This document shows, piece after piece, positions 29,491-29,586 of a DNA stretch of 34,986 nt. The stretch lies in UHGV virus genome UHGV-0285842; one strand, 5' to 3'. Source of the DNA: a virus. The notes under the pieces are model-generated. The model was given only the letters and a program-made list of their open reading frames with translations. It did no database searches and had not been told where the DNA came from. The number at the start of each line of letters is the position of its first letter. Within the stretch, counting starts at the first letter, position 1. A program made the position numbers and the translations under genes.

Positions 29491-29586
29491 GCGCAAAACT
29501 GCGCTCATTTCTAAGTTGAGTCCAAATCTGGACTGATCTATAGATGCATCCAAATCTGGAGGGATGCGCTTAAAGTTCAGCGCATC
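29491..29586. other. cluster of short inverted repeats and two exact 12-bp direct repeats in a convergent intergenic region
   Basis: TCCAAATCTGGA occurs at 29521-29532 and 29549-29560. Hairpins at 29491-29504, 29520-29533 and 29546-29567; the last shares its 3' arm with a further 7-bp-stem hairpin (29563-29586). Confidence 0.5.

Follow-up and report, generated by a model that had tools for sequence, protein, structure and literature searches.

Several kinds of short-repeat arrays are known from Escherichia coli and its phages and plasmids. In E. coli, repetitive extragenic palindromic (REP) units and their linkers form extragenic mosaics, the bacterial interspersed mosaic elements (BIMEs). 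Their copy number varies among strains, members of the BIME-1/RIB type bind integration host factor (IHF), and the roles proposed for REP/BIME clusters include buffering and the recruitment of gyrase and IHF. The incA locus of P1 and the incC locus of F are auxiliary, non-essential iteron arrays that lie beside initiator genes, repeat a single sequence in direct orientation, to which a known Rep protein binds, and are thought to act by titration or pairing. Origin iterons of lambdoid phages are exemplified by the four annotated ori iterons of lambda, ATCCCTCAAAACGAGGGA and its variants. The element described here occupies positions 29475 to 29596 of the virus genome UHGV-0285842, which was analyzed as a single stretch of 34,986 nt (hereafter, the window). 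It represents one allele of a mini-palindrome mosaic that is hypervariable, specific to its locus, and located between two convergent terminators in prophages of E. coli and Salmonella. At a single hypervariable prophage locus, this array joins a unit plan known from origin iterons to a mosaic organization known from BIMEs, and a literature search found no prior description of such an array.

The unit of the array is 16 nt long and follows the pattern xSSYCA-AAWY-TGRSSx, with AT[GC] on either side; filled alleles are mosaics of such units. Its arms of 5 to 6 bp end in CA/TG and enclose an A-rich center of 4 bp (in total, 51 A, 18 T, 20 C, and 12 G), which does not form a stable tetraloop. A sequence-only reading of the window had described two exact copies of a 12-mer in this region, each embedded in an inverted repeat. 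Both the copies and the repeats are real, but the true count is four palindromic units, not two (Table 1). These four have the arms GCGCA, GTCCA, ATCCA, and GCTTA, and longer alleles contain up to 7 arm types. Nearly all units have the same orientation, and the commonest unit in the family is type A. At the position of unit 3, other alleles carry CCCTCAAAACTGAGGG (unit C), whose arms match those of a lambda iteron.

Selection of 24-mers by the frame xAT[GC]-N16-xAT[GC] alone, with pairing ignored, yields 35 distinct sequences, 34 of which are palindromic; they have a mean of 4.8 of 6 possible Watson-Crick pairs, versus 1.6 for all 16-mers of the arrays. In the alignment of the units, 87% of the cells are paired, as compared to 62% after column shuffling and 23 to 43% in controls with slid partners. 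Changes on both sides of a pair are seen in 53 cells, a number that none of 500 shuffles reached. Some alleles have CATCCA...TGGAGG where others have CCCTCA...TGAGGG at homologous positions. A10 and T15 are invariant, and the pair next to the center is always A-T. Palindromy is the conserved property of the units. The centers are flipped in place between alleles (AATC/GATT, AAAT/ATTT, and AAGT/ACTT). The center of unit 2 is flipped to GATT in the alleles L012, L021, and L029, and that of unit 4 is flipped in L006 and shows a nested double flip in L147 (L numbers designate related loci). Among the mismatches, G-T (7 cases) and A-C (5 cases) are about equally frequent, and no strand-specific RNA signature in the form of wobble-pair asymmetry was found in the array units.

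The units are joined in a small number of ways. A joint consisting only of GATG/GATC places the centers 20 nt apart (21 cases), the joint (G)ATCTATAGATG results in a spacing of 28 to 29 nt (16 cases), and the long linker ATCTnTAAGTnnTTGATTCTTyCGAnnn results in one of 44 to 46 nt (12 cases). On its minus strand, the long linker matches the IHF consensus WATCAANNNNTTR and represents a predicted IHF site. This consensus has 20 matches in 3.5 kb of distinct arrays, versus 0.27 expected, and they are always in the long linker. The window allele, in which the long linker is truncated to CATTTCTAAGT, has no match to it. Tandem Repeats Finder detects only one 20-nt two-copy repeat, in L037; this nearly blank result is due to the units being too diverged.

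Table 1. Parts of the window allele, its bordering terminators, and the genes discussed in the text
Feature	Position	Strand	Description
T1 terminator	29451-29474	+	GCCACTC-TTCG-GAGTGGC, then T6; 7 pairs; ends the 86/77-aa open reading frame
Left border	29475-29489		GTATGTAAAACAATC; ends in the first ATC frame; common to all window-type alleles
Unit 1 (type A)	29490-29505		16-mer GGCGCAAAACTGCGCT; core palindrome GCGCA-AAAC-TGCGC at 29491-29504
Truncated long linker	29506-29516		CATTTCTAAGT; part with the IHF consensus deleted in the window allele (allele comparison)
Unit 2 (type B)	29519-29534		AGTCCAAATCTGGACT; 6/6 pairs; holds the first 12-mer copy (29521-29532)
Medium linker	29535-29546		GATCTATAGATG, containing the 10-bp palindrome ATCTATAGAT; recurrent; gives a center spacing of 28-29 nt
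Unit 3 (type C*)	29547-29562		CATCCAAATCTGGAGG; 5/6 pairs; holds the second 12-mer copy (29549-29560)
Short linker/frame GATG	29563-29566		In both overlapping hairpins; 20-nt unit-center spacing
Unit 4 (type D)	29567-29582		CGCTTAAAGTTCAGCG; 5/6 pairs; forms the 7-bp hairpin 2 with the GATG/CATC frames
Right border	29583-29596		CATCTACAGATACC; CTACAGATAC is the remnant in empty alleles
T2 terminator	29597-29620	-	GCCCCTGAA-T-TTCAGGGGC, then T-run; 8 pairs, T5; ends the Rha-family gene
Small gene, predicted winged-helix product	29175-29435	+	Likely start ATG at 29202, 77 aa (form on record); adjoins the array upstream
200-aa gene	28570-29172	+	Two tandem modules of three helices plus hairpin (AlphaFold2, pLDDT 76)
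Rha/antirepressor-family gene	29629-30459	-	Convergent, downstream; Pfam Phage_pRha, 8e-14; PHROG anti-repressor
gpA-type large terminase gene	26578-28482	-	About 1 kb from the array; first gene on its own strand
64-aa open reading frame	32699-32893		Paralogue of the 77-aa and 200-aa proteins
Large serine recombinase	1832-3526		

The array is bracketed by the intrinsic terminators T1, on the plus strand, and T2, on the minus strand, which were found by a terminator scan; each ends a gene and consists of a GC-rich stem-loop and a subsequent T-run. Both are one-directional, as the T-run is absent from the opposite strand of either hairpin. The predicted transcripts of the two convergent genes thus end before they reach 29475-29596, and a simple scan found no promoter-like site within this region. 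T1 exists in two allelic forms and is conserved across all relatives; T2 has at least four allelic types.

About 70 related loci were collected from viral contigs, metagenomes, complete genomes, and assemblies of E. coli and Salmonella, with several relatives sampled twice, and the gap was defined as the sequence from the T-run of T1 to the A-run of T2. These loci contain 31 distinct E. coli gap alleles of 14 to 247 nt and, in addition, the Salmonella alleles. Even with the same T1 and T2, the gap may be 14, 70, 87, or 245 nt long. Close relatives differ in the number and order of the units and in the orientation of their centers, and some alleles are distinguished by deletions between short repeats (e.g., L007 versus L047; L148). 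In 19 of 65 locus records (about 30%, with some contigs counted twice), the gap is empty, with 14 to 15 nt left that read ATACCTACAGATAC, ATACCTATAGAAAAC, or, in one case, the reverse complement GTATCTGTAGGTATG. In two relatives (L039, positions 5866-6667, and L049, positions 5869-6683), an extra gene with its own terminator is found at the same position between the terminators, and a Proteus relative (L339, positions 3863-4335) has a DUF2158 gene with promoter-like sequences there. These extra genes indicate that the site is a hotspot for moron insertion.

The array is confined to this locus. In a blastn search with a 256-nt array, significant matches in 5,426 complete E. coli genomes were limited to this prophage locus, and isolated phages gave chance-level matches only. 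A scan of 1.4 Mb of enterobacterial DNA found a single framed unit, and the window has none outside the array. A search of viral contigs with the generic framed-unit pattern returned no other array among the matches listed, in which chance matches were dominant. At the same time, Salmonella and E. coli arrays have 26 11-mers in common, versus 0.19 expected, although the flanking genes are just 66 to 72% identical. The long linker and module I (TCTGTATTGCAGG) recur in the Salmonella arrays, along with GCTCA, GTCCA, CCTCA, ATCCA, CGCGA, and GCTGA arms, but in another order. Even where the identity of the 200-aa protein has dropped to 44%, as in one lineage, an array is still recognizable. Sharing of 11-mers beyond the identity of the flanks and persistence in this distant lineage indicate that the array is old in the family and has been repeatedly lost and reshuffled. 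A lone array-unit core, GCTCAAAACTGAGC, is found within the Rha-family coding sequence, at 30270-30283, and may be a chance occurrence or a trace of array exchange.

The 12-mer singled out by the sequence-only reading, TCCAAATCTGGA, is the core common to units 2 and 3. Its two exact copies, with a start-to-start distance of 28 nt, were confirmed and sit within a 24-nt direct repeat of 79% identity. A first-order Markov model predicts 0.3 exact 12-mer repeats within 100 nt per window, and they are found at 7 loci, this one included. The two overlapping hairpins are present as described: hairpin 1 (GCATCC/GGATGC, 29546-29567) is built from the left arm of unit 3 and the GATG frame, and hairpin 2 (GATGCGC/GCGCATC, 29563-29586) shares GATGC (29563-29567) with it. 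The 121-nt segment 29477-29597 folds more stably than its dinucleotide shuffles (z = -4.4 to -4.7; 0 of 200 as good), and this holds on both strands and under DNA parameters. The palindromes of the units are retained in frame in all alleles, with compensatory arms, whereas hairpin 1 has 6 of 6 pairs in alleles with CATCC units and only 1 to 2 of 6 in the CCCTC alleles, in which the in-frame palindrome is perfect instead. The overlap of the hairpins is a by-product of abutting units with a common GATG/CATC frame.

The closest likeness in unit plan is to phage origin iterons, which have inverted arms of 5 to 7 bp around an A-rich center, often after ATC. In a small survey of nine lambdoid origin types (lambda, P22, PhiR12_2/mEp043, HK225, SPN3UB, 4C10, N7, SH2026Stx1, and 720R4), the iterons have the form arm-AAAAC/AAATC/AAGTY-arm', as in lambda ATCCCTCAAAACGAGGGA, PhiR12_2 GTCACCAAAACGGTGAC, and HK225 TTCCCGAAAACGGGAA. 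Read from their sequences, the iterons of lambda, HK225, and SPN3UB are about 20 to 26 bp apart, and the array likewise has several inverted repeats with A-rich centers at a comparable spacing of about two turns. Arms match those of sampled origins in 2 of about 12 types, unit C matching lambda and a unit of L003/L022 matching PhiR12_2. These matches are suggestive and alone not significant, since 4.7% of random arms score at least 11, as well as the weaker match. The array units are always 16-mers (6+4+6), whereas the lambda and PhiR12_2 iterons are 17-mers, so that no unit is an exact copy; in both matching units, the center in the array is one base longer than in the origin iteron. There are other differences as well. 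A real origin repeats a single arm type, whereas the array mixes 4 to 7; origin iterons lie inside the initiator gene and the array in non-coding DNA between terminators; and an origin is indispensable, whereas the array is dispensable and hypervariable. The array thus lacks the presence in every functional genome that characterizes an origin, as well as its AT-rich element: no AT-rich unwinding block is visible in 29475-29596.

Tandem iterons with the arms of unit B were found in unrelated viral contigs from outside E. coli, in one case inside an initiator-like open reading frame (by translation). As such iterons occur in unrelated phages outside E. coli, they support the anatomy of the unit but not mimicry. 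In an unrelated viral contig (L305, IMG/VR contig 3300017780_002948, positions 9549-9621), a palindrome with other arms, TGCTCAAAATGAGCA, comes before four GTGTCCAAAATGGACA iterons, and an AT-rich stretch comes after them, so that mixed-arm palindromes can occur beside real origins.

In its organization, the array resembles the REP/BIME elements, particularly the RIB and RIP types. It is extragenic, lies at the 3' ends of convergent genes, consists of palindromes with few linkers, one of which has an IHF site (here, the consensus only), and varies in copy number. However, its units are 16 nt long versus about 35 nt, are heterogeneous, and are mostly in one orientation rather than alternating. 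The array also occupies one prophage locus as opposed to hundreds of chromosomal sites and shows neither a GTAG/RAYT relationship nor sequence similarity to E. coli REP. Membership in the host REP family was rejected, as the modules are confined to the prophage locus in the genomes and enterobacterial DNA searched. As in incA and incC, the gene immediately before the array encodes a DNA-binding protein (here, a predicted one), and the array is not essential; in contrast to them, it consists of palindromes of several kinds, and the neighboring proteins are predicted winged-helix proteins only. The lambda cosB site (R3-I1-R2-R1) similarly combines repeats with an IHF site near the terminase genes, but the array has no conserved nicking site or identified small terminase, many relatives lack it, and an IHF site is missing from the window allele. 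The type I-F CRISPR repeat, in reverse complement, resembles TTTCTAAG plus hairpin, but this likeness was dropped because this linker variant is not conserved among the alleles.

Our tentative preference is for the array being an accessory, DNA-level cluster of sites for dimeric winged-helix proteins and IHF. It would then act as double-stranded DNA and not as RNA, as suggested by its position outside the predicted transcripts, the lack of strand asymmetry, the A-rich centers that are not stable loops, the fixed length of 16 bp, and the invariant CA/TG. Binding sites are suggested by the iteron plan, the IHF consensus sites, and the adjacent genes for predicted winged helix-turn-helix (wHTH) proteins. 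The likeliest binders would be the paralogous wHTH proteins encoded directly upstream, and IHF might bend the long alleles. Comparable to dispensable auxiliary iterons, the array could titrate or hold a protein or assemble a nucleoprotein complex and would not be needed for growth. It may evolve by recombination or slippage between the common frames, and intrastrand template switching inside the palindromes could flip the centers and keep the arms matched, at least partly. A cluster of protein-binding sites had been among the suggestions of the sequence-only reading, and of these it remains the best one, with moderate-to-low confidence.

Several observations weigh against such a site cluster. 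The arms within one array differ strongly, so that no single protein could read all of them by contacting arm bases. Arm changes that compensate each other would be expected for intrastrand pairing and seems unusual for protein operators. The records without an array, about 30% of the total, keep the wHTH genes. The promoter regions of these genes contain no copy of an array unit, no module is common to all filled alleles, and the models of the wHTH proteins have no match among characterized initiators, repressors, or small terminases. If the units are working binding sites, regulation or competition would be served here by an unusual device, an array of non-coding cassettes that is rapidly reshuffled and whose iteron-like palindromes have several specificities. 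It offers a concrete handle on four orphan winged-helix paralogues in a prophage family that is widespread yet unstudied. Even a functionless array would provide a clean natural case of the evolution of small palindromes, with center flips, matched-arm changes, and frame-mediated recombination.

A structural element similar to REP/BIME is a doubtful alternative. By folding into hairpins or cruciforms, whether as DNA or as read-through RNA, the units would form a buffer between the two convergent transcription units; for example, they could shield 3' ends, stop read-through, take up supercoils, or attract gyrase and IHF. The compensatory arm variation, the fold that beats shuffles on both strands and as DNA, the extragenic location at the 3' ends of convergent genes, and the mosaic of palindromes with a small linker set that includes an IHF consensus, as in BIME-1/RIB, all agree with this possibility; some units, such as CCTGAAATTCAGG and GCGCAATTATGCGC, also look like inner stems of T2 variants. 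However, little RNA should include an array that lies outside both terminators, G-U strand asymmetry is absent, the stems have just 5 to 6 bp with A-rich loops that are not especially stable, and a hairpin needs neither the fixed 16-bp geometry nor the invariant CA/TG. The array is also not interspersed, and no RAYT-like transposase match was found among the window open reading frames scanned, which were not all of those present. It is unlikely that the array is a functionless by-product, that is, a silent gap and moron hotspot in which palindromes are reshuffled by slippage, template switching, and illegitimate recombination. The extreme turnover between near-identical flanks, the gap that is either empty or filled and whose remnant core is also found inverted, the center flips, and the insertion of whole genes at the same site would agree with such a by-product, and microhomology can account for single changes (e.g., L007 versus L047, L148, and L131). 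Yet the unit types, frames, long linker, and module I persist in Salmonella at 66 to 72% DNA identity, and the array persists alongside a neighboring protein that is 44% identical, by which point neutral DNA should have been randomized. Unit length, frame, and CA/TG are also strictly kept. A further reading, which appears improbable, is that the array collects pseudo-origin iterons that differ in specificity, on a non-coding accessory insert (moron), and serves as a decoy for, or pirate of, the O-type initiators of competing phages. Unit C would then mimic lambda/Stx-type iterons and another unit those of the PhiR12_2/mEp043 type, and the prophage might soak up or misdirect the initiators of its rivals or be replicated by them. 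Ectopic ori-lambda iterons on plasmids do block lambda growth (PMC4488673, PMC3349717).

Two functions proposed in the sequence-only reading are not supported. A packaging site (cosN/cosB or pac) of the gpA-type terminase is very improbable. At a distance of 1 kb lies the large terminase gene, whose strand has no gene for a small subunit, the gap is transcription-free, and the long alleles have an IHF consensus flanked by repeats, loosely like lambda cosB. Nevertheless, most related viral contigs encode terminases (TerL) that are 93 to 99% identical and have no constant sequence in the gap, nothing in the gap is shared even by phages with a TerL identity of 95 to 99%, empty alleles retain just 14 to 15 variable nt in either orientation, the window allele has no IHF consensus, and the ends of related viral contigs are scattered, with none in the gap. 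Least credible of all is an RNA switch (an attenuator or a riboswitch) in which the two hairpins exclude one another. Their overlap in GATGC and the stable fold speak for such a switch, but the region lies past the terminators on both strands, no open reading frame follows on either strand that it could control, strand asymmetry is absent, about 30% of the locus records lack the element, and hairpin 1 is lost in the CCCTC alleles. Rfam at gathering thresholds has no match in the whole window. A permissive scan of 29380-29680 (E ≤ 10) gave sub-threshold matches only, five of them over the end of the 86-aa gene and T1 and one, of 8 bits as against a gathering score of 70, inside the array at 29546-29576. 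Overlapping hairpins of palindrome arrays can thus pass for RNA switches.

The small helix-turn-helix gene noted directly upstream of the array is borne out as encoding a predicted wHTH protein. In the AlphaFold2 model (mean predicted local distance difference test [pLDDT] score of 80), the 77-aa protein has a disordered basic N-terminal arm, RGRP, followed by three helices and a β-hairpin. Fold searches with this model give just weak matches to wHTH and homeodomain proteins. The recognition-helix region of its homologues, GISIAQFYK, is near-invariant in E. coli and Salmonella. The domain is present in four paralogous copies in three proteins (two in the 200-aa protein and one each in the 77-aa and 64-aa proteins), none of which has a match above noise in Pfam, PHROG, NCBIfam, PDB sequences, or fold searches. 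Members of this family occur only in Escherichia/Shigella, Salmonella, and Proteus. An AT-rich spacer of 87 bp separates the terminase gene from the divergent orphan wHTH genes, of which there are two at this place. On the other side of the array, the 5' end of the Rha-family gene has an 18-nt tandem duplication (30432-30456) that results in the repeated peptide MNTVTT-MNTAV.

The window represents most of a prophage of about 36 kb with a G+C content of 41.7%, far below that of E. coli. In addition to the genes listed in Table 1, it encodes a lambda-family portal, a protease-capsid fusion, and tail and lysis proteins. No repressor, replication, or small-terminase genes and no cos site were recognized in the prophage, and no small-terminase gene is found upstream of the large terminase. 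Isolated phages include no relative at the DNA level, the best TerL match being 44% identical, and none of the GTDB species representatives has this TerL. A contig with an identical 77-aa protein runs on into ycdX and ghrA, and the product of ghrA is 100% identical to that of E. coli, which identifies E. coli as the host. In strain ES2 (L131, NZ_CM184352, positions 13604-14008), ycdX is interrupted by the prophage and left truncated beside ghrA. The prophage family, which has ycdX as its integration site, is found in 55 of the 5,426 complete E. coli genomes, and its Salmonella members have the same gene order with a DNA identity of only 66 to 72%. A literature search for the ycdX prophage or for BIME-like arrays in phages found nothing relevant.

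Two other repeat clusters are found downstream. In a 1.2-kb non-coding stretch, a repeat similar to GTGTAGGTTT occurs about ten times in direct orientation (32020-32150); this cluster is probably an iteron-type replication origin and a better, more ordinary origin candidate than the array. The number of its GTGTAGG copies varies among relatives and shows no correlation with array length. A second cluster of mini-hairpins, at 31640-31900, has GAA, GTA, and TTCG centers (GCAACCGAAGGTTGC, ATCCCGAAGGGAT, ACGCCGTAGGCGT, an exact GCGAAGC, GCGCTTCGCGC, and ACGGCTACGCCGT). Relatives differ here by insertions and deletions and have repeated AAAGTGATT, CTAGAATCA, and TAGTAAC motifs in this region, and several related assemblies break in or beside it (window positions 31450-31785). 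Upstream of the 64-aa wHTH gene, a near-consensus sigma-70 promoter, TTGACA-17 nt-TATACT (11 of 12 matches), is found at 32343-32371. Its -35 hexamer lies within the palindrome TTGACAACTGTCAA, so that this site may be an operator-promoter.

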